Source: Mycoplasmatales bacterium
Lineage (GTDB): Bacteria; Bacillota_I; Bacilli_A; CBDATW01
DNA length: 64,000 nucleotides
Reading direction: 5' to 3'
NCBI GenBank assembly: GCA_965226165.1
Contig: CBDDCI010000002.1
Span: 656-64,655, forward strand
Under the pieces are notes generated by a model. The model was not told where the DNA came from and did not search any database. It saw only the letters and a list, made by a program, of their open reading frames with translations. Positions 20,401 to 43,376 of the stretch are shown here, in pieces (position 1 is the stretch's first letter; each line of letters starts with the position of its first letter). Made by a program: the position numbers and the translations under genes.

Positions 20401-20403
20401 TAT

Positions 20404-22368
20404 TTACAAAGTATGAGGGATATTAGAGTTTATATCTTTTATATATCTCTTATCATTTAAAAACTCGATATTGTATTTTGTTACTTCTTTAGTAGAAATT
20501 TTTTGTTTTTTTACTGAAATAATATTAAAAGAAATCTTTTCAGGTTTATTATTATTCAATAATGTTTCTTTAAACAAAATATGATCTATATATTGTTTTG
20601 AAAAAGAATCTGAAAGACCTTTTGTATGTAAAATATTATTTTTCATTTTATAATTATTATTTTCTATATGATTTTTACAAATATAACTATTACATTTTGA
20701 AGACAAAAATATACCTTCTTGAATGGGATTATGTAAAATTTCTGGTTCTGGTTCTATTTGACCTATATCACTTCCAAAAAAATCTTTATTATTTTCAAGT
20801 ATTTCTAGATATTTTTCATGAGACATGTTTAATTTGGCGTAAATACTATCTGTATCCATATACAAAACTTTATAATCATTTCCAAATAATTTAGGATATA
20901 TTTTATATAAATAATTATACATATGAACTTTACTATTTTGTAAAATAATACTACCTATTAAAATTGGATAACTATAAACAACCGACGTTTTTTCCATTTC
21001 TAATATAGACAAATTTTTATTAACAATATTTCTAGAATTATAATTTGGTTTTTTAACATATTTATCAACTTGTTCTTCAGTTGTGACAATCTTAAAATTT
21101 TTAAATCTTTCAACTCTCGTCATCATTACTCCAAATAAGGAATTCATTAATATTTTAAAAGTATTACTCATTCCTTTATTTTTTATTGATTTATAATATG
21201 ATTTTTTTTCAAATAAAATGTCTATATAAGGTCTCATAAAATTAGTATGTTTGTATTCTAATATTTTTTTAACATTAATTTTATATCCTAAAGATTTTAA
21301 CATTTCATACATTTCAAATGAAATATAACTATTTTTATCGTATCCTAAATGGCTTATTAATTTTTCAGATGATTTATAATTCTCTTTCAAATTTTTTCTC
21401 TGAAAATCTGATAATTGATTATATAAAATTCGTGATTTACTAATTAATGAGGAAAATTGTGATAATGTTTTATTGTTTAAAACTTTTTTCGTTGTATAAA
21501 TTTCAACATTTAACAAACAACCAAACGATTTTGATTGACCATATCTATCTTTATCAAATTTAGAAACAAATTTGTAATTACTAATTGGAAGTTTCTGAGT
21601 CATAACATAAGGATATAAACTAACAACATCGCATGATGATATAACTGATTTTTCATTATCATTATCTACAATGTTTTGAGAAGCAACGCATAAACCTCCT
21701 AATATGCTTGAATCAGTATAATCAAACATTGTAATATCTTTAAATAATTCTATTTTAACTTTTGTATATTTCAACATTAAATCTAAGGATAGTGAACAAC
21801 TTGTTATATATTTAGAACAATCTATCTCGAATTTATCCCAAATAGTGTTTCTAAATGTATTGAATATATCAGCTTGCAAACATATGTCCAATTTCATATA
21901 AATTTCTAAATAATCTTTAACATTTTTACATTTTAATTTTTTATAAATTTCCAATGTTTTATCATATTCTTCTTTTTTAATATCTCGTAATTTTAAACTG
22001 GAATAAAATTTATCAATTGATGGGAGTTCTTTATCAAAAATATTATCTTTCGTCAACCATTCATAAGGAAAAGCTGTTTTAATTTTAAGTATTTCAAAAT
22101 TATCTGAAAAATGTTTCTTAGTAATAATTTCATATTTATCTAACAGATTTTTAGATAATTCAGATAATGAACCTTTTATAAAATTAGAAATATCTAATAA
22201 TTTAAAACTATATTTCATATTTTTAAATTTAAAATTAACCATTTTGAAAGATTCACATGAATTACCTATAGTGTTTAATGTTATTTCATCTTTATAAATA
22301 TCACATAAAGATTTTAATAAAATTGAATTATCATATTTCATTCCATTAAAGAAATATATAGGAATCAT
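20404..22368 (-). CDS. Protein-primed family B DNA polymerase, C-terminal polymerase portion.
   Basis: Motif A DVVSLYPYVM, motif B KILMNSLFGVMM, motif C YMDTDSIYAKL. The gene is disrupted upstream: a frameshift at ~22350, a TAA at ~23820 and a frameshift at ~24680. Whole gene 20404-24983. Confidence 0.8.
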   Translation of the reverse strand: MIPIYFFNGMKYDNSILLKSLCDIYKDEITLNTIGNSCESFKMVNFKFKNMKYSFKLLDISNFIKGSLSELSKNLLDKYEIITKKHFSDNFEILKIKTAFPYEWLTKDNIFDKELPSIDKFYSSLKLRDIKKEEYDKTLEIYKKLKCKNVKDYLEIYMKLDICLQADIFNTFRNTIWDKFEIDCSKYITSCSLSLDLMLKYTKVKIELFKDITMFDYTDSSILGGLCVASQNIVDNDNEKSVISSCDVVSLYPYVMTQKLPISNYKFVSKFDKDRYGQSKSFGCLLNVEIYTTKKVLNNKTLSQFSSLISKSRILYNQLSDFQRKNLKENYKSSEKLISHLGYDKNSYISFEMYEMLKSLGYKINVKKILEYKHTNFMRPYIDILFEKKSYYKSIKNKGMSNTFKILMNSLFGVMMTRVERFKNFKIVTTEEQVDKYVKKPNYNSRNIVNKNLSILEMEKTSVVYSYPILIGSIILQNSKVHMYNYLYKIYPKLFGNDYKVLYMDTDSIYAKLNMSHEKYLEILENNKDFFGSDIGQIEPEPEILHNPIQEGIFLSSKCNSYICKNHIENNNYKMKNNILHTKGLSDSFSKQYIDHILFKETLLNNNKPEKISFNIISVKKQKISTKEVTKYNIEFLNDKRYIKDINSNIPHTL

Positions 22369-23680
22369 TCTTTATTTGAAGGTTGCATTCTCTACATATA
22401 AATCCTAATATACTATTTTCTTTGAAAGCATGATCATGATGAATGACTTTGATTTTATTTTCAATTATGTTTTCATTCTTTATATTATCTGTTGAAACTC
22501 TTATTCCAAATTCTGGAAAATGATCTTCTATATTTTTAAATGATAATTTCATATTAATTTCAGTTTTTTCTAAAATAATTTTTTCTAAATCATTTATACT
22601 AAAATGTTTGCTTTTATCATCAGAATATATTTTTAAGCCATCATATTCAAGAGTGAATATATTTATTCTTTTAATAACAAAATAGTTTATCATGATTTGT
22701 AATATTTGGTTTTCAATATCTAAAATGATTCTACTTAAGTTCTTTCCCAAGTGATTATAACCCTTTTCAAAATATCGTTTATCTTTTGAATAAAAATATT
22801 TTTGTATTTCTATAATTTCTTTTTCTAATAATTTCAAATAATTATTGATTCTATTATCATCAGAATATTTTTCTTTAAAGCCTCCGTTTAGAATAGTTAA
22901 AAACCTTTCCTTAACAGATTTTCTATTATTACCAAATGAATTTAAAATCAATTCTCTATTTTCAACATAATTCTTTAAAATATTACAACTTATTTCATAT
23001 TTCTGACATAAATTTAGTAATATAACAGGATGAGCATTAATCATATCGATGTCTTTTATATTTTTAGGCATAATAGAATTTCTAATTTCTTTTTTTAGAT
23101 AAGATAAACAACTTCCAACTCCATAATACCTGTTTTTACATTTATGTTTTTGTTTGTATTGAATTCTTTTTCTACCCGAATCATCTAAACTATCGTAATA
23201 ATTTCTTGCTAAATTATTTACTTCTTCATTATAATCATTATTATCTAATATATATTTTAATTTTTCTTTATCTACTATTTCATTTAAAATAATGCATCTA
23301 TCATTATGAGGATGATCAAATTCACAATCACAATATTTACATTTCAAAGTATTATCGAATTCGTTTTGATCAAAATTTAAATAATCAATAGGATTTTGTA
23401 AATATTTTTCTTCAATTTCTTCTATATATTTTAATTCGTTATACAAACTTTCTGTATATTCTTCTAAATAATAAAAAGTTTGAATGTTTTTACTATATTC
23501 ATCATTTTTGCATTCTAATAAATACCCTCCTGATATAAATTTATGTTCTTTAGTATTCGGGTCTATAACACATTCAAAATGGCTATGAATTAACCAATTT
23601 CTTTTAATACAATTTTTTAAATTTTCAAAATACATGTATTTTTTAAAATTAGGTAATAATTTTTTAGGTTTTCTATTCAT
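22346..23680 (-). CDS. Protein-primed family B DNA polymerase, middle portion (exonuclease/TPR region).
   Basis: Collinear with copy 3 fragments 46272-48107 (for example KNIKDIDMINAHPVIL, LEYDGLKIY, HHDH...CRECNLQIKN). It ends at the frameshift where copy 3 reads on into MYFFNGMKYDNSI. Confidence 0.7.
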   Translation of the reverse strand: MNRKPKKLLPNFKKYMYFENLKNCIKRNWLIHSHFECVIDPNTKEHKFISGGYLLECKNDEYSKNIQTFYYLEEYTESLYNELKYIEEIEEKYLQNPIDYLNFDQNEFDNTLKCKYCDCEFDHPHNDRCIILNEIVDKEKLKYILDNNDYNEEVNNLARNYYDSLDDSGRKRIQYKQKHKCKNRYYGVGSCLSYLKKEIRNSIMPKNIKDIDMINAHPVILLNLCQKYEISCNILKNYVENRELILNSFGNNRKSVKERFLTILNGGFKEKYSDDNRINNYLKLLEKEIIEIQKYFYSKDKRYFEKGYNHLGKNLSRIILDIENQILQIMINYFVIKRINIFTLEYDGLKIYSDDKSKHFSINDLEKIILEKTEINMKLSFKNIEDHFPEFGIRVSTDNIKNENIIENKIKVIHHDHAFKENSILGFICRECNLQIKNDSYIFL

Positions 23681-23821
23681 ACAATATTCAATATGAAAGT
23701 TATATTTTTCTTTACTATAAAAACTATTTAAGCAATTTCTACATGATTTAACAACATGAGAATTGTTACCAATAAAAATATTTATGTTTTTTATTAAAAT
23801 ATAATGATTTATTTCATCTAT

Positions 23822-24571
23822 TTATAATAAATCTAAATCTTTGTCATATGTTTTTAAAGATTTTCTAATAATTTTTTTACTAGCTAATTTTTTATTACAT
23901 CCGAATATATGAATATTACATTCTAAAAAAATTTCTATTTCATCAATTTCACCTATTGAAATGTTTTCAAAATCTGTATTATGTTCATCAATTAATTCTT
24001 TTGAAATTTTTATATCTTTTTTATTAATTCTAGAAATATTTTTTTCAATGGGGTTCAAATGTTTTCTAATGTAGCAATATAACAAGCATTTGTTATCATT
24101 TAAGTTTTTAATAATTACTAAATTTTTCTTTTTGAAAAACACATCAGGAATCTTATCAATTTCTTTTGAATCACCTGCAAAGAATATATTACATTCTGAC
24201 ATTTTTATAAGTAGTCTTGTGTTTTGAATGATTTTCATTTGACTAGCATCATATTCGATATCTCCTTCAGAAATAATGTTAATTTGTTCTTGATCAATAG
24301 GCGTTCCATCAAAAACGTCTCTATCTCTTCCGTATAAATCATCAAAATCAAAACTTTTTAAATGTTTAAAATTCTTTAAATTTAGTTTGTCTATATTATC
24401 AATTTCACTCATATTATTAATATTAAATTTTTCTATCCAAAAATTAGTTAAATCATCTTTTACAGATTGATTATATTTATATATACTTATTTTATATTCT
24501 TTATCCTTTTTTCTATGTTTTAAAATTAATGACTTAACTTTATCTTTAAAATATAAATCTTTATAAAACAC
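23822..24571 (-). CDS. Protein-primed family B DNA polymerase, N-proximal portion.
   Basis: Collinear with copy 3 45463-46901 (VFYKDLYFKD..., NDNKCFLYCYIRK, NIHIFGCNKK). It is separated from the next part by a single in-frame TAA. Confidence 0.6.
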   Translation of the reverse strand: MFYKDLYFKDKVKSLILKHRKKDKEYKISIYKYNQSVKDDLTNFWIEKFNINNMSEIDNIDKLNLKNFKHLKSFDFDDLYGRDRDVFDGTPIDQEQINIISEGDIEYDASQMKIIQNTRLLIKMSECNIFFAGDSKEIDKIPDVFFKKKNLVIIKNLNDNKCLLYCYIRKHLNPIEKNISRINKKDIKISKELIDEHNTDFENISIGEIDEIEIFLECNIHIFGCNKKLASKKIIRKSLKTYDKDLDLL

Positions 24572-24677
24572 ATCCTTATCAATTATATGAAAATCAATGA
24601 TTATATCAATAAATTTCTTTTTAATAGAAGTTCTTTTTTTTATTGTAAAATTTTTATCAAAATTATCAATATGTTGT

Positions 24678-24983
24678 TTAGAAAAAATAATGTTCTTTAT
24701 TTACAGTTTCGTCACATAATAGACAATCAAATTTTTCACATTCATTACAAAATTTTAAATAAGAAGTATTATGTTTTTCACAAAATGAATATCCTTTTCT
24801 AATATTCACCATTTTATCTAATCTATGTTCATTACAATATAGAATTTCTTTTTTTCCTGAATAGTTATAAGAAGATAATTTCTTACAATTATTTATAATA
24901 CAATATTTTTTATATTTTAAAATTTCCCCCTCTGGGGTCATATAAAAATATTCATTCAATTTTGTTATTTTCTTACTACCCAT
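24678..24983 (-). CDS. N-terminal Cys-rich (zinc-finger) domain of the polymerase gene. It is frameshifted relative to the downstream part.
   Basis: YCIINNC...YCNEHRL...FCEKH...CNECEKFDCLLCDETVNKEHYF matches the N-terminus of copy 3 45463-46170, where it is fused in frame. Confidence 0.5.
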   Translation of the reverse strand: MGSKKITKLNEYFYMTPEGEILKYKKYCIINNCKKLSSYNYSGKKEILYCNEHRLDKMVNIRKGYSFCEKHNTSYLKFCNECEKFDCLLCDETVNKEHYFF

Positions 24984-25069
24984 ATATAATAACTATATAT
25001 AAATATTCATATGGATTTTTAAAAATTACAGATTTTTTCATCTTGATGATTAGAACAATAATTATATTT

Positions 25070-25498
25070 TTAAATAATAAGGGTTAAATTCTGATAGTTA
25101 TTTAAAATTCTATCATTACAATAATCTTTAATAAATTTTGCATAACAATAAATATTATTTTTAATTAGTATTTTATCTACAATTGATTTATAAGTTTCAT
25201 TTTCATTTAAAATAAAATTATTCTTTTTTAATAAAAACATTATATATTCTCTGTTGTCATATACATGTTTTTTAAATATTAATTTTTTAGATTTAGTTAA
25301 TATATATTTTCTTTTTAATAAATAATACATATTTATATTATATTTTTTAAAAATATTATCAATATTAAATTTTTGAATATCTCTGTCTAAATAATAAATA
25401 TCAAATATTTTTATTAATACATTTTTAATGATATCATCAGATTCTTCATTGTTATCATTTTTTAATATGTTTTTTAATATGTCTATGTAAGTATCCAT
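25070..25498 (-). CDS. Hypothetical protein, 142 aa. It is a positional and weak sequence counterpart of copy 3 44039-44503.
   Basis: ORF with an ATG, lying between the pPolB and integrase genes and divergent from the integrase. Weak similarity in the KKYNINMYYLLKRKYIL region. Confidence 0.35.
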   Translation of the reverse strand: MDTYIDILKNILKNDNNEESDDIIKNVLIKIFDIYYLDRDIQKFNIDNIFKKYNINMYYLLKRKYILTKSKKLIFKKHVYDNREYIMFLLKKNNFILNENETYKSIVDKILIKNNIYCYAKFIKDYCNDRILNNYQNLTLII

Positions 25499-25593
25499 AT
25501 ATTTGTATTTATATTTTATACATATATAAATTTTATATTTTTAATCTAAATAAAATATATAGAATTGGTAAATATTTTTATATAATATATAAA

Positions 25594-26913
25594 ATGACAA
25601 TTGACATACATAAAGTGATAACTGGGAATCCTATAACAAAAAATTTAATGAAACCATGGGGTAGTAATAAAGAAAAAACAATTTTTAATAAATATACAGG
25701 TCCTGGGAACGATTTAAAAAAACAACTTGATTTTAATTCATATACAGGAGAAATTTATAAAATTCATGATCAACCTTCTTCTTCAAATGATAGATGTTCT
25801 ATGTTGCATGATGTTGCATATACAGTAGCTCAAAATATTGGAAAAAATAATAAAGATATTAAAAGATTAAAACATATAGCTGATGATAAATGGTTGAAAT
25901 GTTTTAAATCAAGGTCTCCCTGGGATATAGCAGCTTATTCGAGTATTAAATCTAAAAAAGTATTGGGACTAGGTAATAATTTTACAATAGAAGACCTTAG
26001 TCAAGAATTAAACAAACCTGTTATTAATAAATTTGAAAGGAAAAAAGTTATTGTGAATCATATAGATGAAATTCATTCTTGTGATTTAGTTGATATGGTA
26101 AAATATTCTAAAATGAACAAGGGATATAAATATATTTTTACAAATATTGATATTTTTTCAAAATATGCATGGAGTTTTCCTATTAAATCTAAAAATATTA
26201 AAGACATTAAACCATGTTTTGAAAAAATATTTAAAGAACGAAAACCTAAATATATTTGGTCAGATCAAGAATCAGCTTTTTTCTCTAATGAAATGTTAAA
26301 ATTTTTTGAAGATCATAACATAAAGATTTATCATACTTATTCAAATCTAAAAGCGGTTGCTATAGAACGATTTAATAGATCACTAAGAGAGTTAATGATG
26401 AAAGAATTTGTTAAAAATAATAATACAGTTTGGTATAATATTTTACCTGAACTAATAAAAAAATATAATAATAGATATCATAATACTATAAAAATGAAAC
26501 CAATTGATGTTAATAAAACAAATGAAAAATATATAAAAAATACTATATACAATTATAATATGACAAATAAAAAACCAAAATATAAAATTAATGATTTAGT
26601 TCGTATCAGTTTAAAAAGAAGAGAATTATTTGACAAACCTACTGGTAATATTAAATGGTCAGAAGAATTATTTAGAATTTATAAAATAAATAAATCGAAT
26701 GTTATAACATATCAATTAAAAGACATGAATGATGAAATTATTAAAGGCATTTTTTATGAAAAGGAACTACAATTAACAAAAAATATCACAGGGGAATATA
26801 TAATAGAAAAAATATTGAAGACTAATAAAAATAAAATACATGTAAAATGGAGAGGATACAATTCATCCTTTAATAGTTGGATCAATAAAAACAGTGTAAC
26901 AAAATATATATAA
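25594..26913 (+). CDS. Retroviral-type (rve, DDE) integrase with a C-terminal chromodomain.
   Basis: HSCDLVDM...GYKYIFTNIDIFSKYAWSFPIKSK (D, D), YHTYSNLKAVAIERFNRSLRE (E), chromodomain EYIIEKILKTNKNKIHVKWRGYNSSFNSW. Intact 439-aa ORF. Confidence 0.9.
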   Translation: MTIDIHKVITGNPITKNLMKPWGSNKEKTIFNKYTGPGNDLKKQLDFNSYTGEIYKIHDQPSSSNDRCSMLHDVAYTVAQNIGKNNKDIKRLKHIADDKWLKCFKSRSPWDIAAYSSIKSKKVLGLGNNFTIEDLSQELNKPVINKFERKKVIVNHIDEIHSCDLVDMVKYSKMNKGYKYIFTNIDIFSKYAWSFPIKSKNIKDIKPCFEKIFKERKPKYIWSDQESAFFSNEMLKFFEDHNIKIYHTYSNLKAVAIERFNRSLRELMMKEFVKNNNTVWYNILPELIKKYNNRYHNTIKMKPIDVNKTNEKYIKNTIYNYNMTNKKPKYKINDLVRISLKRRELFDKPTGNIKWSEELFRIYKINKSNVITYQLKDMNDEIIKGIFYEKELQLTKNITGEYIIEKILKTNKNKIHVKWRGYNSSFNSWINKNSVTKYI

Positions 26914-27046
26914 AAAATGACACAATTTATAAAAATGTATGTCACAGTTTTTATAGAGTTTTAAGTATAAAAATGACACAATTTATAAAAATGTATGTCA
27001 CAGTTTTATTAAATGAATTTCACAAAAAAATATATTATAATTATAT
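26914..27046 (+). promoter_or_regulatory. Intergenic direct repeats (2 x 38 bp) with TGACAC/GTCACA half-sites downstream of the integrase.
   Basis: AAAATGACACAATTTATAAAAATGTATGTCACAGTTTT occurs twice. Analogous GTGTCAT / ATGTCAT arrays follow the integrase in copy 1 (7040-7200) and copy 3 (38344-38698). Confidence 0.45.
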
Positions 27047-28141
27047 ATGACTACTTTTAAGGAAATAGACATTAATGAATATAAAAAATTATTAGATAAT
27101 ATGCAACACACATATGCAAAAACTTTTAATAATATTGAATTATTACATAATTTTGAAGAAAATATAAATGATAAAAATATTGGAACTGTTATTAAAGATA
27201 AAGAGTCATTAGAAAAAGAAGATAAATATATTGATAAATTAAGTGATAAATTATCAGAAAAAATTACAAATTCTAATAATAATAATAATAATATTATACA
27301 AGATAAGAAAAAATATGTTTTTTTAAACACACATGATTATTACAGTAAAAATCCAAAAGATATTTTAAACTATATTAAAAAAATATATATAAAATCAAAC
27401 ATTGGTTATGATAAAATATATAAACCAAGACCTAAAACTGTTAATGTAAGTCTTGGTAATATTATTAAAAAAATAGAAAATGATGATAAAATATCTAATG
27501 AACTCAAAGATGATTTTATTGATGCTTATAATAACATACCAAATAAGACAAGTATTCAATTTCATAATAAATATTATAGAGAATATGTTATGGAACCTAT
27601 TGAAAGGTATTATATCGAAAAAAATATCGATGCAGATGATGAAATATCTATTATAAGAGATGATGATCTATCAATTGTTCCCAGTAGTGATAAAGAAGAT
27701 AAATCTTTAAAAGATAAATTAAAATCAAATATTGAAAAAACTGTTGTTAATACTTTAACAGGACAGGGATTACATTTTAATAAAATTAAGATAGATGAAA
27801 ACCTCTTGAAAAAAAATATTTTAAAAGTTAGATATATTAATTCGAACAGAAAAATCAATAATAAATTTTTAAAAGAAGATTATAAAATTTCTAATAACAT
27901 GAAGAATAGTATATTAAAAAATACTGGTTTAAATAAATTAACTAAAAACGAATATAATGTCTATAATACATTACAAAAATATAGGAAAAATGATGATAAT
28001 TTACAATTACTAACATCATCATACTTAGCAGGGAATAAAAATAAAGATCTTTATAGCAAAATAAATGAACTGTTATATAAGAATTATAAAAATAATATCA
28101 TTAATAAAAAACAATATCAGAATATTATAAATAAGTCATAA
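27047..28141 (+). CDS. Lys/Asn-rich conserved Polinton protein, 364 aa, function unknown.
   Basis: The conserved C-terminal block ILKVRYINSNRKINNKFLKEDYKISNNMKN...SSYLAGNKNKDLYSKINELLYKNYKNNIINKKQYQNIINK is shared with copy 1 and copy 3 (38699-39646). Confidence 0.5.
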   Translation: MTTFKEIDINEYKKLLDNMQHTYAKTFNNIELLHNFEENINDKNIGTVIKDKESLEKEDKYIDKLSDKLSEKITNSNNNNNNIIQDKKKYVFLNTHDYYSKNPKDILNYIKKIYIKSNIGYDKIYKPRPKTVNVSLGNIIKKIENDDKISNELKDDFIDAYNNIPNKTSIQFHNKYYREYVMEPIERYYIEKNIDADDEISIIRDDDLSIVPSSDKEDKSLKDKLKSNIEKTVVNTLTGQGLHFNKIKIDENLLKKNILKVRYINSNRKINNKFLKEDYKISNNMKNSILKNTGLNKLTKNEYNVYNTLQKYRKNDDNLQLLTSSYLAGNKNKDLYSKINELLYKNYKNNIINKKQYQNIINKS

Positions 28142-28155
28142 TTATATTATATATA

Positions 28156-28848
28156 ATGACTGAACTAATTCTTAATTCAAACGAACATAAAGTTGATGTA
28201 AATAAATTAAGATATGAATTCAAATCACCTATTAGATTTGATAATTCTTTTGTATCATTAACACAATTTGTCTTTCATAATTTTTTTCATAATGTAAAAC
28301 AAAATTATGAAATGAAAGTGAGGAAAGATAGTACTTTTTATAATATTAGTTTTATAGATTCAATGCTAGAAATTGAAGATATCAATAAAATTATTAATGA
28401 TGAGTTGATAAGACACGAGTTATCAACTGAAGATGATCCTCCTATAATTAATATTATAGGAGATGTAAATACATTTAAAATAATTATTTTAGTTGAAAGA
28501 GGATATGAATTACATTTAGATAATAATTTTGCTAAAATGTTAGGATTTAGTTATAAAATTTTAAAAAAAGATTTGCAAAGAAGTGATTTAATTCCTCAAA
28601 TTAATCGTATTAATTATCTTAAAATTTATTCTAATATTATTGATAATGAAAATAATCCTTATTATCTTAGTTATGTCTTTATCAAGTCAAATGTTTCTGA
28701 ATTAAGTGTTTATAATGAAAATAATATATATAAAAAACAAAAAATAATTAATGATATTTTTGATTATATAGAAATTGAAATTTTTGATGAAGAAAATGAA
28801 AAAATAGAAATGACTGATTACTTTTCAGTTAGTTTATATATTCATTAA
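28156..28848 (+). CDS. Conserved 230-aa protein, a candidate minor capsid (penton) protein.
   Basis: Homologs at 5343-6035 and 39653-40342. TATATATAATG start context. Confidence 0.55.
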   Translation: MTELILNSNEHKVDVNKLRYEFKSPIRFDNSFVSLTQFVFHNFFHNVKQNYEMKVRKDSTFYNISFIDSMLEIEDINKIINDELIRHELSTEDDPPIINIIGDVNTFKIIILVERGYELHLDNNFAKMLGFSYKILKKDLQRSDLIPQINRINYLKIYSNIIDNENNPYYLSYVFIKSNVSELSVYNENNIYKKQKIINDIFDYIEIEIFDEENEKIEMTDYFSVSLYIH

Positions 28849-28857
28849 TTATATATA

Positions 28858-29235
28858 ATGCCTTTACAAAAATTATCAGAAATAGAAGAAAAATTAGGAA
28901 AAGATTATATTGATATTAAAAAAAGATATATTAAATTAAAAAGATGTAAATATGCTCTTTTAATTTTAAAAACAAGTTTATTATCATTATCTATAGGTTT
29001 ATCTTTTTTAAATCCTATATTAATAATAGTATCATCAATCGTTCCTATTATAGATAGTATTATGTTAATAACAAATAAAGATAAAGAAGTCTCTCATTTG
29101 AAATTACAAAAAGATATTATTAACCAAATTATTAAAGAAATTGAAATTAAAAGATATACTTTTGAAAATGATGAAGAAGTTAAAAAATATATTTTAGAAG
29201 TATATGGAAAAATAGAAACATTTTTAGATATATAA
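28858..29235 (+). CDS. Small transmembrane protein, 125 aa.
   Basis: Hydrophobic core LLSLSIGLSFLNPILIIVSSIVPIIDSIMLI. Its position is conserved upstream of the ATPase. Confidence 0.5.
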   Translation: MPLQKLSEIEEKLGKDYIDIKKRYIKLKRCKYALLILKTSLLSLSIGLSFLNPILIIVSSIVPIIDSIMLITNKDKEVSHLKLQKDIINQIIKEIEIKRYTFENDEEVKKYILEVYGKIETFLDI

Positions 29236-29244
29236 TAATATATA

Positions 29245-29883
29245 ATGAAGTTCATAAATTTTGATAATATAGTTAATAAAAATAATGAAAATAATTATAT
29301 TAATAAAAATGTTTTTGTACCTCAACATGTTTCAAATACAATTATTATAGGTCAATCAGGCTGTTCAAAGACAAACCTATTATTCAATATATTAACATTA
29401 AATCCAGTTTTTCAAAAAATATTTATTTTTACTAAAGAACCAGAAGCAAAATATAATTTTCTTATAAAAAAATTTCCTCAAGATATAAAAATTTTTTATC
29501 AAAATGATGAATGTGATTTAGATAAATTAATTAAAGGAGATTTGCAAACCTGTTGTATCTTTGATGATCAACTAACAGATAATAAAAAAATTACTGATTG
29601 GTTCATACGTTCAAGAAAGAAAAATTGTTCTAATTTCTTTTTAGCACATTCATATTTCAAAATGAGTAAAACATTAAGATTGAACGTTAATTATATTATT
29701 TTATTTAAAATTCCTAAAAATCAATTAACTCACATATATAATGATCAACCAATTAATATTGATAGAGAATTATTTTATAAAATCATTTCAGAATTAAATA
29801 GATATGAAAATATTATTATAGATTTAAAAACTCCTATTGATAAATTTCAAATTAGAAAAAATCTGAATGAAATATTATGTTAA
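29245..29883 (+). CDS. FtsK/HerA-superfamily (A32-like) DNA packaging ATPase.
   Basis: Walker A IIIGQSGCSKTN, Walker B-like CCIFDDQ. 212 aa. Confidence 0.85.
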   Translation: MKFINFDNIVNKNNENNYINKNVFVPQHVSNTIIIGQSGCSKTNLLFNILTLNPVFQKIFIFTKEPEAKYNFLIKKFPQDIKIFYQNDECDLDKLIKGDLQTCCIFDDQLTDNKKITDWFIRSRKKNCSNFFLAHSYFKMSKTLRLNVNYIILFKIPKNQLTHIYNDQPINIDRELFYKIISELNRYENIIIDLKTPIDKFQIRKNLNEILC

Positions 29884-29896
29884 TATATAATATATA

Positions 29897-30061
29897 ATGA
29901 TAGTTAACGGTGTTATTGTTTCAAAGGATAAAAATAAATATCAAATAGGAGAAGGACTTAAATTAGTTAAATAAGGATCTGGATTAACAAATACAAAGGG
30001 ATCTGGAATATCAAATGTTAAAAAACTTGTAAAAGGAAATGGACTAAAAATCTTACAATAA
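29897..30061 (+). pseudogene. Small Lys/Gly-rich basic protein gene with an in-frame TAA after codon 25.
   Basis: MIVNGVIVSKDKNKYQIGEGLKLVK*GSGLTNTKGSGISNVKKLVKGNGLKILQ* is in one frame. It is homologous to the intact copy 1 (4136-4339) and copy 3 (41369-41518) versions. Confidence 0.45.
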
Positions 30062-30088
30062 AAAAATAATATTTTATTATAATATATA

Positions 30089-31285
30089 ATGACTAGTGAA
30101 CTGAACCATATCATAAATTTAATAAAATCAAAAAATGAAAAAGTAGAAAACATATGTTATAAAGAAGTACATAAAATTAAATTAGAAAAAAGAGATGGAA
30201 ATAATCCCATCGTTTTTAATACTAAAAGTATTTTAAGTAACTTAATTGATTATAGCAATGCTTACATCGAATTTCAATTTAACATTAAATTTGCAACGGC
30301 TGATGCTTGTACAAAAGCAAATTTAACTCTTAAAAACTCATATGAAATGATTTTGGAATTGAAAATTGAATTAAACAATAGAATCATTTCAAATGAATCT
30401 AATGTTAATTATAGTCATATTATAAATCATCTATTAGAAAATAGTAAAAATGATGATTTAATTTATAGGAATATTGATATTCATACCGATGTTGTCAAAT
30501 ATAACGATACTAAAAAGGATGTTTTTTTAACAAAAAATGGTGATACTATGAGAGTTACTTGCAATGTCTTTTTAAAAGATATTAGTAACTTTTTCAAAAA
30601 TTTACATATGCCCCTAAAATTTTCAGAATTTAATATAACACTTAGATTAGTCGATTCTATCTATGTTACAGATCAACCTGATACAACTCAAACATTAGTA
30701 AGTGCTAATTTATATGTTGATCAAGTAGATTTACATGAAATGGAAGAAATTCAATTTGTTAAAAATTATAATAATTTTGATGTTAATATTCCATTTTTAG
30801 AAAATTTTGTTATTAGAGATTCTCAAAACATAACAGATAATGAGTTTAATGTAGGAGCAAATAATTGTACAAACACAAACGATATGTTTTTAATGTTAGT
30901 TAAAGATGATGTTGTTACAAATAATACTCATACAAATTCTCTTCGTTTACCTAATAAAAGAGCTAAAAATCTTCAATTATATATAGGGAATCAACTATTT
31001 CAAACAGGAATTAAAAGCGATCTAGAAGCTTATTTAGAATTAAAAAAGAGAAGTGAATTCTTTGATGAATTTATCATAGATTACAATAGATTTTTAAATA
31101 ATTATACTATTTATGCTTTTCCAATAAATAGATATAGTAAAAAAGATAAATCGACAAAATATATTAATATAACAGGTGTTGGTATTGATGAAAATGCTTC
31201 AAAAGGTATTTTAGTATGGAGACAAATGTCAAATATTAATCTTAAAATAAATAATAATTCATTAGAAATAAGAAAAACATATTAA
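30089..31285 (+). CDS. Putative major capsid protein (double jelly-roll candidate), 398 aa.
   Basis: Largest conserved structural ORF. Its position between the small basic protein and the pre-protease/protease genes is conserved in all three copies (2929-4107, 41544-42788). No sequence-level proof of a jelly-roll fold. Confidence 0.5.
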   Translation: MTSELNHIINLIKSKNEKVENICYKEVHKIKLEKRDGNNPIVFNTKSILSNLIDYSNAYIEFQFNIKFATADACTKANLTLKNSYEMILELKIELNNRIISNESNVNYSHIINHLLENSKNDDLIYRNIDIHTDVVKYNDTKKDVFLTKNGDTMRVTCNVFLKDISNFFKNLHMPLKFSEFNITLRLVDSIYVTDQPDTTQTLVSANLYVDQVDLHEMEEIQFVKNYNNFDVNIPFLENFVIRDSQNITDNEFNVGANNCTNTNDMFLMLVKDDVVTNNTHTNSLRLPNKRAKNLQLYIGNQLFQTGIKSDLEAYLELKKRSEFFDEFIIDYNRFLNNYTIYAFPINRYSKKDKSTKYINITGVGIDENASKGILVWRQMSNINLKINNNSLEIRKTY

Positions 31286-31300
31286 ATAATTATATAATAC

Positions 31301-31888
31301 ATGGAAGTTAGTTATAAGTTTTCGCCTAAAGAAATACAAAAATTATCTAAGTTTAAAAATCCTTCTATAATTTTAAGAAAAGAGAATATTGTAAAAAATG
31401 GAAAATATAAGGTTCATCTTACTAAAAACATGTTTAATAAATTACTTGAACATAAACAATTGAAATATGTTTTTACTGATAAAAGAAAGGAAAACTATAT
31501 TAGAGAGGGAGGATCATTGGATTCAATTTTTAAAAGTTTATCTCCTCATTTAATTAAATTTGGGAAGAAGCTTTTGCCATCTCTTGGAGTTACTGGAATA
31601 ACAACAACCACTTCTCATCTGATAAATAAATCTTTAAACAAAAAGAAGAAAAAAGGAGGTGATTTAAAAATAGTTTTATCACAATCAGATGTAAATAAAA
31701 TTAATAATGTTTTGAGAAAATTATCAAACATGAAATTAACTAATCACAAATCCATTTCAGAACAAAACGGATCAGGAATTTTTACTCGCTTATTATTGCT
31801 TTTAATTGGGAGTATGATACCATCATTATTAAATAAAGGATCGGGTGTTTGTTGTAATAAAAAAGATAATTTTTTTTTGAAAAAATAA
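31301..31888 (+). CDS. Pre-protease structural protein, 195 aa, with a C-terminal hydrophobic segment and KGSG motifs.
   Basis: ...EQNGSGIFTRLLLLLIGSMIPSLLNKGSGVCCNKKDNFFLKK. It ends inside a T9 run that overlaps the protease ORF. Confidence 0.5.
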   Translation: MEVSYKFSPKEIQKLSKFKNPSIILRKENIVKNGKYKVHLTKNMFNKLLEHKQLKYVFTDKRKENYIREGGSLDSIFKSLSPHLIKFGKKLLPSLGVTGITTTTSHLINKSLNKKKKKGGDLKIVLSQSDVNKINNVLRKLSNMKLTNHKSISEQNGSGIFTRLLLLLIGSMIPSLLNKGSGVCCNKKDNFFLKK

Positions 31889-31935
31889 ATAACAAAGATT
31901 TATACCCAATTTCAAATTTTAAAATTAATGAAATT

Positions 31936-32307
31936 TTGAAAAATAATGAAAATTATATAGGAACTTTTAGTAAAAATAACGTTCCTAAACTTAAAAATAA
32001 TCAATCAACAATATTTAATTTGGCTAATTCAAATGATAAGGGAAGTCATTGGATAGGAATGAAATTTATAAATAACAAATTATTTTATTTTGATTCATAT
32101 GGAATTCCATATATTCCTGATGTTATAAAAAATCAATACTCAGATGATAAAATTATAATAAATATTTATAGAATTCAAAGTAATGATTCAAATGAATGTG
32201 GGAGATTTTGTATAATGTTTATTCAATCAAATATAAAAAATGAATCAGACTATATTAAATTTTTATTACAATTTGAAAAAAATAATTTTGAAAAAAATGA
32301 TATATAA
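31936..32307 (+). CDS. Adenovirus-type (adenain/Ulp1-like) cysteine protease.
   Basis: GSHWIGMKF...FYFDSYGIP...NECGRFCIMF. The track start is TTG, not ATG. The ORF is open back to ~31890 (FFFEKINNKDLYPISNF), just after the TAA of another frame. Confidence 0.7.
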   Translation: MKNNENYIGTFSKNNVPKLKNNQSTIFNLANSNDKGSHWIGMKFINNKLFYFDSYGIPYIPDVIKNQYSDDKIIINIYRIQSNDSNECGRFCIMFIQSNIKNESDYIKFLLQFEKNNFEKNDI

Positions 32308-32313
32308 GTATAT

Positions 32314-32523
32314 ATGATGGATAGTTCTTATTGCCTTAAATGTAAACGAAAAACAAAAAATATTAATTCAAAAGGATTTGTTACAAAAAATAAAAAATAT
32401 TTAGTTAAATCTTTATGTGATATTTGTAAATCTAAAAAAAGTAAATTTGTTTCAAAACAAGATGCTTCTGGTTTTCTTTCAAATCTCTTTTCAAAAATAC
32501 CAATACTAAATAAAATTATATAG
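32314..32523 (+). CDS. Small zinc-ribbon protein, 69 aa.
   Basis: CLKCKRKTKN-x-CDICKSKKSKFVSK, conserved with 1709-1915 and 43836-44042. Confidence 0.55.
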   Translation: MMDSSYCLKCKRKTKNINSKGFVTKNKKYLVKSLCDICKSKKSKFVSKQDASGFLSNLFSKIPILNKII

Positions 32524-32529
32524 TATATA

Positions 32530-33147
32530 TTGATGTATTATTATAGAGAATCAACTAAAGATAATTATGAAGATGATATAAGAAACTTGAATATTAAAAT
32601 TGATATTGTTTATTCTTTACTAGAAAATATTACTAAAGATAGAAATGATTTATTAATATTGTTTAATTCTAGAATAAATGATAACATCCCAAATGAAAAT
32701 ATTTTTCATAATGATGTATATGTTGATTCAGATAATAGATTTAAATTAATTTTTACATGTAAATCTGAACCTAGTGATATCTATAAATATATTTTTCATA
32801 TATTTATAAAATCTGATTTTAATAATATAAATTTAAAATTTATAATTAATAATAATAAAGATTTCACTTATGATATTTATGTTAATAAATTGTATTATTT
32901 AAAAATTGAAGAAAAATTTATTTTTAATGAAATTCAGAACTTTAAAATATATTTAAAAACTGATAAATCATTAACTATAATGGGTTATAGTTCATATGAA
33001 GTATTAGTAAACTATCATTCTGTAACAATTTTAAATAATCAAGATCATATTAAACGATTAATTTATAAAAAATTGGATAAAAACAACAAACTAATTAGAG
33101 AGTTTATATTAAAAGATATTAAAAAAGATGATTTACCGATTAAATAA
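32530..33147 (+). CDS. Conserved Polinton hypothetical protein, N-terminal half. It is split from 33160-33687 by a stop, where copy 1 has a single 325-aa ORF.
   Basis: Collinear with 726-1703, conserved block LIFTCKS.PSDIYKYIFHIFIKSDFNNINLKF. The real ATG is at 32533. Confidence 0.45.
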   Translation: MMYYYRESTKDNYEDDIRNLNIKIDIVYSLLENITKDRNDLLILFNSRINDNIPNENIFHNDVYVDSDNRFKLIFTCKSEPSDIYKYIFHIFIKSDFNNINLKFIINNNKDFTYDIYVNKLYYLKIEEKFIFNEIQNFKIYLKTDKSLTIMGYSSYEVLVNYHSVTILNNQDHIKRLIYKKLDKNNKLIREFILKDIKKDDLPIK

Positions 33148-33159
33148 TTTATATTATAT

Positions 33160-33687
33160 ATGGATGAGATAGTAGAGAGAGTTGAAAATAATTTTATTAA
33201 TATTTATAAGAAATTTGATATCTTAGATAAAAAATTAAATGATTATCATATGAAATTTGATAAAATAAACGAAATGATTGATATTATTATTTCAGATGAA
33301 TATACTAAAATTTATAAAACATATTTTCCAATGAAAAATTATGATCTAGCACAAGATAGATTTTTTATATACAACGAAGTCATTGATATACCATTAAAGA
33401 CAAATACTTTTATTATTTTTGAATATGTTTTTTATAGTGAATATATTGATATTCCATTAATTATTAATTTAAAAATTGATGATGTTTTAGAAAAATATTT
33501 TAATATACATTTAAAGGAATATAATAAAATTAGGCACATATTTAAATTAGATTATAACATTACTAAAATTAATTTTTATTTATATTTGTATAGTAATGAA
33601 ATATATAATGATGAAAAAATGGAATACTTGAAAAAAATATTATTTAATAATAAAAAAATTAAATTTAATATATTTTCTTTTATATAG
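33160..33687 (+). CDS. Conserved Polinton hypothetical protein, C-terminal half.
   Basis: Matches the C-terminal half of copy 1 726-1703 (ILDKKLN.YHMKFDKINEMIDIIISDEY.KI.K.YFPMKN.DL.QD.FFIYN.VIDIP). Confidence 0.45.
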   Translation: MDEIVERVENNFINIYKKFDILDKKLNDYHMKFDKINEMIDIIISDEYTKIYKTYFPMKNYDLAQDRFFIYNEVIDIPLKTNTFIIFEYVFYSEYIDIPLIINLKIDDVLEKYFNIHLKEYNKIRHIFKLDYNITKINFYLYLYSNEIYNDEKMEYLKKILFNNKKIKFNIFSFI

Positions 33688-33691
33688 ATAT

Positions 33692-34795
33692 ATGAATTAT
33701 TATAGAAAACTTATAGAGAAAACAATTAATGATGTTAAGTTGAAAATGCAAATCGGTGCTTTAACAGTTAGAATAACTGAAAATATTAATAAAATAAATG
33801 ATTTACTTGAAGTAGATAAAGATATTAAAAAAGATGTTAGTGATAATTCAAATGCTCTTAAAAATTTTTACACTAAACAAGATGTACTAAATATAACAGG
33901 TCAATATTATTTAAAAAAATATCTTTATGATAAAACATATATAGATACTAATTTTTTAGTAAAATCAGAAATTGATAAGAAAGATAATGAAATATTAAAT
34001 AAAGTAAATAATAATTTTTATTCAAAAAATTACACTAGCGATAATTATCACTTAAAAAACAATGTTTATGATAAGAATTATATAAACAATTTAACTAATA
34101 ATCTTTATAACAGAACACATTTAGATAATCAATTTAATAATATATATAATAAAACAGAAATAAATGATGAAATATCAAAATTGGATAGGAACATTGTTTT
34201 ATTCAATACAAATTTAACCAAATTTATTGATGAAACTTATGAAAACGATAAAGAAATTTTAGAAGGAGATATAAAAGAAAATAAAAATTTCATTATTAAT
34301 ACATTTAGTACATTTTCAAACAACATTAGTAACATCAATAATAGTCAAAATAGTAGATTGAGTGATTTAGAAAGTAAAAATTTAAGTGATACTCAAATAA
34401 CTAAAATAAATGAATTAGAGAATATTGATCTTGGGAAGATTAATAAATATTCATATTATATAAAAGAATTTTTTATGCATAATATAGATTTAGTCAGGAG
34501 GTTTAATATAACATCTGAAGCAGATTCTATTCAAGTACTACAATTTGAAATAGATAGAAATTTTTTAGTTAATGATATAATCAAATTTTTTATAAGTATA
34601 AAGTTTTTGTATGAAAACATGAAAATGTATTGGGTACTATATTTTAAGATAGATGTTCATTATAAAGATGATGTATTAATTAAAAGTTTTAAAAGACAAA
34701 TGACCTCAAAAGGATTTATTTTCAAAAACCTAGTGACATTTAATATAGATAATATGTTTAAACTTAATAAACAAACAGATCGATTAATTTTTTAA
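33692..34795 (+). CDS. Asn/Tyr-rich coiled-coil protein, 367 aa, a candidate fiber/spike protein.
   Basis: N-terminal coiled coil, then reiterated N-x-Y-x-K/N-Y motifs (YDKTYIDTNFL, YSKNYTSDNYHL, YDKNYINNLTNNLYNRTHLDNQFNNIYNKT). It is the last gene before the right TIR. Confidence 0.45.
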   Translation: MNYYRKLIEKTINDVKLKMQIGALTVRITENINKINDLLEVDKDIKKDVSDNSNALKNFYTKQDVLNITGQYYLKKYLYDKTYIDTNFLVKSEIDKKDNEILNKVNNNFYSKNYTSDNYHLKNNVYDKNYINNLTNNLYNRTHLDNQFNNIYNKTEINDEISKLDRNIVLFNTNLTKFIDETYENDKEILEGDIKENKNFIINTFSTFSNNISNINNSQNSRLSDLESKNLSDTQITKINELENIDLGKINKYSYYIKEFFMHNIDLVRRFNITSEADSIQVLQFEIDRNFLVNDIIKFFISIKFLYENMKMYWVLYFKIDVHYKDDVLIKSFKRQMTSKGFIFKNLVTFNIDNMFKLNKQTDRLIF

Positions 34796-34799
34796 ATAA

Positions 34800-35680
34800 C
34801 GTTTATAAACAAAAAAATTTCAACATTCAAAGTTTGTTTTTTAATGACTCAGTATTTTTTCGTTACATTTTCGTCAGTGAATTCGAAAATAATACCGAGT
34901 CATATAGAAACAAACAAAAAATCATCGCCACTGACAAACCCTGACAAACCTAACAAAAATATGAATAAACATCTATTCGAACAAGTAGTATACATTCCTC
35001 CGAATTCTCTCAAAATGAAAAATAGGAAGAACAAATTTGCCAGTTTCTCGGGGAGATCCGTTTAAATATATATATATCCATATTCGAGTATATTGGGGAT
35101 TTTTAGTGAGCTTAATCAAGAAAATTAATTAGCGGAGTTTGGTTAATTTTTAAGAAAAAAAGTTCAATGCACGTCGAAATGGAATGAAGTGAGCGAAGCG
35201 AACGGAATGAAATGGAGACGTGCATTTGAACCTTTATTTTTGAAAAAGATTGACGCGGAGTTCTGATTAACTTTTTCGATGGGCGATAAACGATTATCTA
35301 ACACTATCATCATATTCCCAAAATCTTGTAAATTCCCCATTTTAAAAGCATTTATCTCGAGAGGTTTTTTAAAATTGGTTTAGAATATGTTTTTTTATTA
35401 CTAAAGAATATTTGAAGATATTTTTTTTTTCTATATCATTTTCATCTTAAAAACAATATTTGATTATTATTTATTATCAATGTTGAAAATTGGAGCTTTA
35501 AATATTGCAAGATTTTGTCATATTTTCAGTTTTTGTCTGTACGACCCAAAAAACGACCCCTGAAATGCTCGAGTACAAGATATCAACATATTTAAACGGA
35601 TCTCCCCGAGAAACTGGCAAATTTGTTCTTCCTATTTTTCATTTTGAGAGAATTCGGAGGAATGTATACTACTGAAATTA
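34800..35680 (-). repeat. Right terminal inverted repeat of copy 2.
   Basis: Reverse complement of 18392-19160. The terminal ~85 bp block is also present in inverted orientation at 34985-35065. The identical track ORFs 18903-19151 and 34844-35065 are a consequence of the TIR. Confidence 0.8.
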
Positions 35681-39646: not shown

Positions 39647-39652
39647 TATTAT

Positions 39653-40342: not shown

Positions 40343-40348
40343 AAATAT

Positions 40349-40717: not shown

Positions 40718-40732
40718 ATGGTTTAAATATAT

Positions 40733-41365: not shown

Positions 41366-41368
41366 TAT

Positions 41369-41518: not shown

Positions 41519-41543
41519 ATTTAATATTTATTAATAATATATA

Positions 41544-42816: not shown

Positions 42817-43376
42817 AATTGGTTATAATTTTTTAAAGAAAGATTTAAATAAAATACAAAAATTTAAAAATCCAACTTTAGATATTGATAAAAGCAGGAT
42901 TAAAAAAATTCAAATTATAAAATATTTCTTAATAAAAATCAATATAATAATTTAATTGAAAATGGTAATATTAAATATAAATTGACTGATTCTAAAAAAC
43001 AAAAACATTTAATGATTGGAGATGGAATTGGTTCTTTAATTCAAATGGCTTTACCGTTTGTTAAATCAGTTGCTACCAAAAGTTTTAGGAACGTTAGGAT
43101 TATCATCTTTAGGAGCTGTAGCTTCTTCTGCTATTAGTAAAAAAATGAATAAAGATCATATTATAAAAATATCTGATAAACAACTTGAATGATATAAATA
43201 AAAATTTAGAAAAAATTAATAAAATGAAGGTCTTTGATAAAAAAATTACTTTGAATCAAAAGGGGTCAGGTATATTTTCATTTTTATTACCAATGTTAGC
43301 AAGTACAATAATCCCAGCTTTAATACCTAAGAAAAAAGGATCTGGTATTTCTAACAAAAATGATTTTTTTTGAACA
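42817..43376 (+). pseudogene. Pre-protease structural protein gene, disrupted by stops and a frameshift.
   Basis: N-terminal MIEIGYNFLKKDLNKIQKFKNPTLDI and C-terminal NQKGSGIFSFLLPMLASTIIPALIPKKKGSGISNKNDFF (track ORF 43185-43373) match 31301-31888, but they are not in one open frame. Confidence 0.4.

Follow-up and report, generated by a model that had tools for sequence, protein, structure and literature searches.

In a 64-kb stretch of DNA (the window; 64,000 nucleotides of contig CBDDCI010000002.1, assembly GCA_965226165.1), we found three related elements that, judged by their gene content and termini, are virus-like elements of the Polinton/Maverick type, and whose adenain-like protease appears to rely for its expression on the gene that precedes it. 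The protease reading frame opens inside a T run at the 3' end of a precursor gene and would not constitute an independent gene. On balance, we lean toward the protease being made as a C-terminal fusion through transcriptional or ribosomal slippage on the U run, and it is probable that it is made as a fusion of some kind when an in-frame polyprotein is counted as well. The broader proposal, that this whole lineage may make its maturation protease only by recoding on a U8-U9 tract, with a dosing and packaging logic like that of Gag-Pro and a tolerance of changes in run length, stands for us at even chances.

The arrangement is clearest in copy 2 (18386..35676, plus strand), which belongs to the family that we call A. 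Its "pre-protease" gene (31301..31888, plus strand; 195 codons) is intact according to the open reading frame (ORF) list and its translation, and the product ends in ...GSGVCCNKKDNFFLKK followed by TAA. The 3' end of this gene reads GAT AAT TTT TTT TTG AAA AAA TAA and contains a run of nine T, located by direct reading at 31870..31878 (plus strand), which is the proposed slippage site. In the upstream frame the run is read as AAU UUU UUU UUG, which contains the heptamer U_UUU_UUU, and in the protease frame as UUU UUU UUU. The upstream frame terminates three codons past the T9 run, at TAA 31886..31888 (plus strand). The protease ORF (31870..32307, plus strand; ∼145 codons, FFFEKINN...EKNDI and then TAA; Pfam Peptidase_C5) lies in the -1 frame relative to the upstream gene, where the sequence TAA TTT TTT TTT GAA AAA ATA AAT AAC translates as a stop followed by FFFEKINNKDLYPISNF (stop-FFFEKINN). 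Three-frame translation thus places a TAA of the protease frame directly 5' of the run (31867..31869, plus strand), and therefore the protease ORF of copy 2 cannot begin upstream of the run. The first in-frame ATG occurs only past the candidate catalytic His (GSHWIGM).

The other two copies in the window have the same organization with other run lengths. Copy 3 (∼36950-50000), a member of a sister family that we call B, has its protease ORF at 43360..43824 (plus strand), with an ATG at 43360 inside AATGATTTTTTTTGA and a T8 run at 43364-43371. The junction sequence is AAAATGATTTTTTTTGAAC; the upstream frame ends AAT GAT TTT TTT TGA (TGA at 43371-43373) and the protease is in the +1 frame, with ATG ATT TTT TTT GAA overlapping the upstream TGA by 14 nt. 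What is left of the copy 3 upstream gene (∼42810-43373) carries at least three frameshifts. In copy 1 (∼555-8100, minus strand; family A), the run is interrupted, with an A followed by T6, in the junction ATATTTTTTGA (2343..2353, minus strand; upstream stop TGA at 2345-2343). This junction reads GATAATATTTTTTGAA, so that the upstream frame ends DNIF-TGA and the protease frame, again +1, reads KIIFFEKLNN without an ATG: ATA ATA stands where copy 3 has ATG ATT. The copy 1 protease ORF (1922..2391, minus strand) is open from ∼2391, has a tool-called GTG start at 2368, and encodes a product with 82% amino-acid identity to that of copy 2. The copy 1 upstream gene has one frameshift and one nonsense codon, which leaves copy 2 as the only one of the three copies with an intact upstream gene. 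A junction peptide, FFE(K/Q)(I/L)(N/K)N, is common to all three.

An earlier note on this DNA had described the protease as lacking an ATG in copies 1 and 2 and having one in copy 3, as open in the +1, -1, and +1 frames in copies 1, 2, and 3, respectively, as overlapping the end of the upstream gene at a T run in every copy, and as sharing this peptide across the junction. Our direct reading bears out each of these statements, and the overlap extends to all 16 of the 16 DNA junctions now available, each of which falls on a T run without a spacer. The position of two quoted strings needs correction: those with the ATG and with ATATTTTTTGA, which the note lists under 31860-31960, come from copies 3 and 1.

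The protease also lacks the start signal that marks the other genes of these elements. In copy 2 and in a further copy outside the window (L007), a TATA-rich motif with a consensus of approximately TATATAATATATA ends 0 to 3 nt before the ATG of every other gene. That of the upstream gene (TAAATAATTATATAATAC; 31283..31300, plus strand) lies directly 5' of its ATG, and the motif-bearing ATGs of copy 2 are at 25594, 27047, 28156, 28858, 29245, 29897, 30089, 31301, 32315, 32533, 33160, and 33692; the same holds in L007. The protease is the sole gene among 11 to 13 that has neither an ATG nor the motif. With a weight matrix trained on the L007 starts, six of the seven top matches in copy 2 were annotated gene starts and the seventh corresponded to a small gene of L007, whereas near the copy 2 junction no in-frame site was detected and the best matches were out-of-frame ATGs with much lower scores. 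Since ATG and start motif are both missing, the protease is most likely translated from the mRNA of the upstream gene.

The intergenic spacers of these elements are often just 4 to 15 nt. If the motif is a promoter, the 5' leaders would be almost nil. A normal TATA box lies ∼30 nt away from the start of the transcript, and the placement found here is more like that of promoters in cytoplasmic DNA viruses and linear plasmids.

Separate translation of the protease, from an ATG in the overlap, from a near-cognate codon (ATA, ATT, or GTG), or by termination-reinitiation at the upstream stop, is in our estimate very unlikely. It would draw on the overlap ATG of copy 3, on ATGs located 9 to 10 codons upstream of the Glu codon that follows the run in two other copies (L002 and L010), and on the ∼23% of family B members that start MIFFEQ; in T8 copies the homologous codon is ATA. 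Yet in the T9 state, which is that of the family A majority, a stop directly precedes the run and the frame offers no start at all, and a ribosome scanning to the overlap ATGs would have to pass an ORF of 190 codons with several AUGs. Moreover, we looked for the start motif before the overlap ATGs of copy 3, L002, and L010 and did not find it. Such ATGs occur in 3 of 12 out-of-frame DNA junctions, at three different positions, and base composition predicts ∼0.018 ATG per codon, or ∼24% for 15 open codons. On this ground we rejected selection for an overlap ATG, the observed frequency matching the chance expectation. As they have no start motif, differ in position, and occur at chance frequency, the overlap ATGs look incidental, and that of copy 3 probably is.

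To place the window copies among their relatives, we used 13 further DNA copies obtained by exact-protein look-ups; all fetched contigs come from one ENA assembly, ERZ25073769, with 3-6x coverage. A scan of IMG/VR and JGI metagenome contigs for related loci yielded no relatives. In the protein collection, we found 660 homologues of the protease, 770 of the upstream protein, and 728 of the copy 3 protease, and the junction is repeated across 16 DNA copies and over 300 protein clusters. These proteins came from a bacterial gene caller, and many an N-terminal "M" is really GTG or TTG; on DNA, the starts of P0035 (L001) and P0002 (L004) proved to be GTG and those of P0026 (L002) and P0442 (L010) ATG. 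Gene callers and annotators would thus systematically miscall or miss these proteases, leaving database entries that are truncated or that have GTG or TTG "starts."

A T run is always present at the junction, and its length varies from 6 to 11 T across copies. In family A, the run is T9 with the protease in the -1 frame in copy 2, L002, and L007; T10 after an A-to-T change, also with a -1 protease, in L003b; T8 with a +1 protease in L001, L004, L008, and L009; and A then T6, again +1, in copy 1, while the two genes are in frame at T7 in L003a and L005 and at T10 in L006. In family B, copy 3 and L010 have T8 with a +1 protease, and L011 has T7 and is in frame, its whole upstream gene and protease being contained in one frame. 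The protease frame of L007 resembles that of copy 2: it is likewise closed by TAA or TGA before the run and has no ATG ahead of the catalytic His. Among the best 120 upstream-protein clusters, 72 end ..FFLK[KN], as expected of T9, 30 end ..FF (T8, TGA stop), and ∼11 continue into the protease, four of them as complete ORFs of 320 to 333 residues. The last codons before the run are GAT AAT in 62 of the 72 T9 clusters (those ending KDNFFLK[KN]), which implies a TAA directly before the run in the protease frame.

We then asked which run state is inherited by considering the members with a readable C terminus inside clusters of at least 90% identity. In family A, 80 such members were T9, 17 T8, 7 in frame, and 1 T10-like, and three family A clusters were T9 in 12 to 14 of 15 members. 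In family B, 53 of 71 members had the T8/+1 state (37 without an ATG and 16 starting MIFFEQ), 10 were in frame, and 3 read FFFEQ. The inherited and commonest state is thus, on this sequence evidence, out of frame in both families but in opposite directions, T9/-1 in A and T8/+1 in B. Because T9 or T8 dominates within these clusters, the out-of-frame state has been passed on through the expansion of each family. We rejected the idea that the T9 of copy 2 is a private 1-nt insertion in a T8 design, T9 being the majority and inherited state of its family.

The in-frame copies (T7 or T10) make up 7 to 14% of the members within clusters and are sporadic; from their distribution, we take them to be scattered derivatives. 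The opposite view, which we consider rather unlikely, is that an in-frame genome is the functional template and encodes a self-cleaving polyprotein, while a hypermutable run gives rise to copies off by ±1-2 nt that are defective or are complemented in trans by in-frame genomes arising from slippage in DNA replication; the heterogeneity would then lie in genomes and not in RNA. In-frame copies do occur in both families, among them L011 and complete ORFs of 320 to 337 residues (P0133, P0195, P0238, P0184, P0576, P0629, P0675, and P0714), the run changes length very often, and an in-frame polyprotein accounts for the missing ATG and start motif as well as slippage does. In contrast, the in-frame copies are scattered, those with clusters of their own being singletons or in small clusters, and of four full-length fusions that are cluster representatives, the three that we looked up (P0133, P0195, and P0238) were each the sole member of their cluster. 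A T10 or T7 master state would be expected to prevail in the young clusters, but the large ones among these are T9 in family A and T8 in family B. Furthermore, the least decayed capsid modules (L007 and copy 2) are T9, and the in-frame DNA copies L005 and L006 are among the more decayed.

The additional copies allowed us to revisit two suggestions of the earlier note. Its idea of a slippage-dependent fusion gains from them insofar as they have no spacer, always keep the run and the overlap, and mostly lack an ATG, including L007, copy 2, and the largest young clusters, with a dN/dS of 0.08 to 0.30; the pattern that it had named as contrary, a protease with its own ATG after a normal spacer, was not seen, as no copy has a spacer or a promoter-type motif before the protease. 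On the other hand, neither the run length nor the frame relation is conserved, and no downstream RNA structure was found. Its alternative, that copies 1 and 2 are simply inactivated, agrees with the decay of copy 1 but is unlikely for copy 2, which has the inherited T9/-1 state.

The protease matches Pfam Peptidase_C5 (E 9.6e-6) and contains candidate catalytic residues H (GSHW), D (FDSYG), Q (RIQ), and C (ECGRFC), of which H, Q, and C are at least 90% conserved. In an AlphaFold model of P0133, a natural full-length in-frame copy, the protease domain had a predicted local confidence (pLDDT) of mostly 80 to 97, and its best PDB matches were the adenovirus proteinase-cofactor complexes 1NLN/1AVP (E 9e-6); the protease is thus predicted to have the adenain fold. 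Among nine family A copies, nearly all of them without an ATG, pairwise dN/dS values for the protease were 0.08 to 0.30 at dS values of 0.24 to 1.1. Such purifying selection supports that the protease was translated while the start-less lineages diverged.

This result bears on the possibility, in our view quite unlikely, that the protease is mostly unexpressed, in dead or nonautonomous copies, with selection having acted in ancestors with a normal start and with run differences that reflect neutral decay or low-coverage long-read errors. Every copy examined has lesions, copies 1 and 3 are clearly decayed, and the polymerase of copy 2 is broken; in addition, the related copies come from a single 3-6x assembly, long homopolymers are mutation hot spots, and distant relatives have stand-alone proteases. 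Against this, the start-less out-of-frame state is common to hundreds of clusters, with dS up to ∼1 and the low dN/dS values above, and an ancestor with a normal start would have to have been lost many times or be very old. No copy with a spacer or a start motif before the protease was found. Miscalling of homopolymers cannot explain 25 to 40% of non-modal run lengths either, given that the lesions are mostly nonsense and that several copies have 0 to 1 frameshifts per 8.6 kb.

The lesion counts make the same point copy by copy. We found 15 stops and 1 frameshift in L005, 5 and 1 in L004, and 1 and 0 in L002, with L006 having 3 frameshifts and 3 stops, and there were no lesions in the 11 genes of the capsid modules of L007 and copy 2. 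Sequencing or assembly error in the homopolymer was therefore rejected as the source of the length variation. The polymerase gene of copy 2 (20404-24983) has two frameshifts, one in a T run and one outside long homopolymers, and one nonsense codon, a pattern that is one of real decay and not of homopolymer miscalling. All the lesions detected in copy 2 fall in this gene, which represents about one third of its coding DNA.

The run at the junction stands out from the surrounding sequence. The T9 run is the longest homopolymer in the 4.2 kb before the protease stop, and in the 9.3-kb capsid module it is both the longest homopolymer and the only T run of at least 8. Homopolymers of at least 8 are depleted in coding DNA relative to synonymous-codon shuffles, with 2 observed versus 7.1±1.5 in copy 2 (25594-34795) and 3 versus 8.9±1.7 expected in L007 (513-9771), which suggests selection against slippery runs in this very AT-rich element. 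Since runs of this length are fewer than the shuffles predict, long runs appear to be avoided in coding DNA, and the junction retains one despite this avoidance.

Two other ways of joining the frames were rejected. An alternative genetic code does not fit, as the standard code leaves the other genes intact, with TAA, TAG, and TGA each used as a stop, and direct reading showed that a small intron would remove CC..KKDN codons that are conserved in the upstream frame.

The upstream protein, of 190 to 195 residues, has a strongly conserved consensus (107 sequences), and Pfam, PHROG, and PDB sequence searches with it gave no match. It contains four conserved Gly-Gly/Gly-Ser-Gly motifs (..QNGG, ..KKGG, ..QNGG, and ..KGSG) separated by amphipathic or hydrophobic stretches, and after the last GSG comes the C-terminal sequence G(V/S)CC.KKDNFF. 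The T8 form of the protein ends in a tail of 9 to 11 residues that begins GV, GS, or GC and ends FF. The gene of the upstream protein follows that of the putative major capsid protein (30089-31285), and the protein is probably a virion-associated precursor. In the AlphaFold model of the fusion, the upstream part was of low confidence, the junction had a pLDDT of ∼40-50, and the peptide was not docked on the protease.

We propose that the mRNA of the upstream gene would direct the synthesis of a C-terminally extended product with the junction ...CCNKKDNFF(F)-EKINNKDLYPISNF..., and that this fusion would arise only from the fraction of transcripts or ribosomes that slip on the U run. With the T9 of family A, a -1 ribosomal shift on U_UUU_UUU or one extra U in the mRNA (U9 to U10) would suffice, and with the T8 of family B, the ribosome would have to shift +1 at UUU_UGA or the mRNA to lose one U. 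The outcome would be a small protease dose tied to the structural precursor, which could both set the amount of protease and bring it into the particle during assembly. The protease could later release itself from the fusion by cutting at the conserved GG/GSG motifs, which are possible cleavage sites for this protease clan.

Several features of the junction agree with slippage. Copy 2, like the T9 state generally, has a slippery heptamer of the form X_XXY_YYZ (U_UUU_UUU) in the phase of the upstream frame, and an A/T homopolymer of ∼8-9 or more where the ORFs overlap, the threshold that we took from PMC5009743, is present as the T9 at 31870-31878, the modal length being 8 to 9 in both families. 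Efficient slippage of RNA polymerase is well established for runs of 9 A or T, and the heptamer U_UUU_UUU is recognized as slippery (PMC5009743). The picture is mixed for a shifty stop, as UUU_UGA occurs in the T8 copies (copy 3, L001, L004, L008, L009, and L010) and is lacking in the T9 copy at 31870.

Other observations weigh against slippage as the route to the protease. The 120 nt downstream of the run folded no better than shuffles in the four copies analyzed (z of -1.56 to +1.86), and an Rfam search at the junction matched no family; the lack of a stable downstream structure argues against a classical stimulated -1 signal and fits unstimulated low-level slippage or transcriptional slippage. 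A programmed -1 signal would be expected to keep its frame relation and shift site among relatives, and here these are not conserved (mostly T9/-1 in family A, mostly T8/+1 in family B, 6 to 11 T overall); moreover, a functionless, fast-mutating homopolymer could look alike, with families that need opposite shifts and a run of 6 to 11. On a tree of cluster representatives, the run state was distributed nearly at random (36 changes versus 39.8 after shuffling). A genuine ATG does lie within the overlap in some large subfamilies (L002, L010/P0442, and copy 3). The copies examined are all endogenous and most are decayed, including copy 2 with its broken polymerase, so that the state in a replicating element is extrapolated from them, and all the related DNA comes from the one assembly named above. 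Slippage of eukaryotic RNA polymerase II on U8-U9 is not known to occur efficiently. Lastly, among distant relatives of the protease, stand-alone proteins of ∼150 residues prevail, starting shortly before a conserved (Y/H)P(L/I)SN motif, and therefore the start-less arrangement would be a derived feature of this AT-rich lineage.

Some distant adenain relatives outside the window carry additional N-terminal sequence. P0285, P0308, P0311, and P0376 share an N-terminal domain of 130 to 240 residues with the motif ..F..Y....NCQ.F...LEANG.., which may be a second cysteine-peptidase-like domain, and P0389 and P0254 have short basic or hydrophobic extensions with ..SGGCC.. and ..LLGNLLTGK.., respectively.

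The assignment of the elements is based on self-BLAST and Pfam analyses of the window, in which stretches of ∼19% GC are set in DNA of 30 to 40% GC. Copies 1 and 2 are 77% identical in nucleotides, in addition to the protease identity given above, and form family A, while copy 3, with a protease identity of 48 to 49%, represents the sister family B. Copy 2 is a complete element with terminal inverted repeats of ∼770-860 bp (18386-19157 and 34811-35676) that match at 100% over 352 nt and at 98.3% over 424 nt. It is nested inside the left terminal inverted repeat of copy 3 and flanked by a 6-bp target duplication, GAAATT; its termini read 5'-AGTAGTATAC...GTATACTACT-3' (window 18380-18392 and 35671-35682, by direct reading against the uninterrupted right repeat). 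The interrupted copy 3 repeat (17490-18385 plus 35677-36298) matches the intact right repeat (50101-51640) at 96 to 98%. Copy 2 thus has the terminal inverted repeats and 6-bp target-site duplication of a Polinton/Maverick, together with a protein-primed family B DNA polymerase (Pfam DNA_pol_B_2, E 4e-27, at 20404-22368; an uninterrupted homologue of 1,472 residues is present in L004), an rve integrase (E 3e-11) with a weak Chromo match (25594-26913), an A32/FtsK-type packaging ATPase (Pox_A32), and the Peptidase_C5 adenain. The 398-residue (30089-31285) and 230-residue (28156-28848) proteins sit where jelly-roll capsid proteins are expected; Pfam and PHROG searches with them gave no match.

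The polymerase module of family A (copy 2 and L004) lies left of the integrase on the opposite strand (window 20397-24983, minus strand), and that of family B (copy 3 and L010) occupies the right end and shares the strand of the capsid genes (window 45463-49972, plus strand); the two families therefore differ by a relocation or inversion of this module. The N-terminal ∼100 residues of the 25594-26913 integrase resemble a parvovirus-type phospholipase A2 (PLA2) domain (YTGPG...HDVAY), with a weak match to Pfam PF08398 in the window copy (E 0.0014) and the same family recorded for homologues in L002 (3495-4775) and L006 (4490-5536). Such a PLA2-integrase fusion is unusual; descriptions of adintoviruses have PLA2 fused to a pX-like domain. 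A small cysteine-rich ORF (MMDSSYCLKCKRK...) begins at 32315, only 6 to 7 nt 3' of the protease, with a start motif of its own; for its homologues in L002 (9966-10172) and L007 (7246-7377), Pfam DUF5679 is on record.

Internal repeats of ∼160-340 nt with 68 to 89% identity occur within or beside the terminal inverted repeats (9434-9778, 17951-18392, 35711-36281, and 50118-51180), and a tandem array at 60069-62826, in a host-like flank, has a period of ∼120 nt (self-matches at ∼120, 240, 360... nt) with 72 to 80% identity between its copies. The flanks carry fragments of LINE-type reverse transcriptase and endonuclease and weak Ig-domain and GIY-YIG matches (window 52064-53296; L004 20046-20459; L005 15380-18407; L010 1-5731). 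Owing to this content, we read the host as a eukaryote rich in retrotransposons, possibly an animal.

If the proposed mechanism is true, this virus group would gain its first recoding signal, and a eukaryotic DNA element would be a rare productive user of homopolymer slippage. The mechanism would explain how a compact DNA virus doses and packages its maturation enzyme and would carry the Gag-Pro logic of retroelements over to a lineage of DNA viruses. In addition, the natural T7-T10 allele series offers material for tests of transcriptional versus ribosomal slippage in a eukaryote.

Besides protein-primed PolB, an rve integrase with a chromodomain, an A32/FtsK-type ATPase, and adenain, the elements share long terminal inverted repeats and a 6-bp target duplication with Polinton/Maverick elements and adintoviruses, from which they differ in being unusually AT-rich and in the start motif that abuts each ATG. 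Polinton/Maverick elements are regarded as ancestors or relatives of adenoviruses, virophages, and many other double-stranded DNA (dsDNA) viruses. In the Maverick/adintovirus literature that we searched, adenain is described as an ordinary gene and frameshifts are mentioned only as decay.

The likeness to adenoviruses extends to the protease fold, to the location of its gene beside capsid genes, to the GG/GSG motifs upstream, and to the T8 tail (GV/GS/GC...FF). The adenovirus cofactor pVIc is the 11-residue peptide GVQSLKRRRCF, of which Gly1'-Val2' and Phe11' are bound in pockets (PMC4246237); what the T8 tail has in common with it is no more than a resemblance. In contrast to the situation proposed here, the adenovirus protease AVP is a separate gene product on which pVIc acts in trans, and we found no homology of the upstream protein to pVI: when its profile was compared with all PDB chains, no match fell below E 0.1 and none was an adenovirus protein.

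Transcriptional slippage on runs of ∼9 T or A is documented for Shigella mxiE and Thermus dnaX and, on shorter runs, for potyvirus P3N-PIPO and ebolavirus GP (PMC5009743; PMC4552492). The junction studied here shares with these the 8 to 9 identical bases at a place where overlapping ORFs must be joined; ±1 base in the mRNA would fuse them, and no RNA structure is needed. The known cases differ in that they involve bacterial RNA polymerase or viral RNA-dependent polymerases, and our literature search found no description of such slippage in a eukaryotic DNA element and none that links polintons with it.

Bacterial RF2 (CUU_UGA) and antizyme (UCC_UGA) are read through +1 shifts at shifty stops. 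The UUU_UGA of T8 copies is comparable, as the P-site tRNA-Phe can re-pair perfectly in the +1 frame, after which GAA would be read in the protease frame; this applies only to the T8 copies (family B and a minority of family A) and not to the T9 copy at 31870.

Together with T9/A9 transcriptional slippage as in Shigella mxiE, the Gag-Pro(-Pol) fusions of retroviruses and long terminal repeat (LTR) retrotransposons are the closest parallels in function; these fusions rely on a -1 shift at U_UUU_UUA in HIV-1 and on a +1 shift in Ty1 and Ty3. There, as proposed here, a start-less protease ORF overlaps the end of the structural gene and is expressed as a minority C-terminal fusion from a U-rich site, and the fusion fixes the ratio of protease to structural protein and delivers the protease into the particle, roles that we extend to the present elements from sequence alone. 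The differences are that we are dealing with a dsDNA element with a protein-primed polymerase, that there is no stimulatory stem-loop or pseudoknot, that the homopolymer is polymorphic, and that sister families would use opposite shifts. A slippage-fused protease in these elements would thus be a variant of a known strategy, one that is new for this group.

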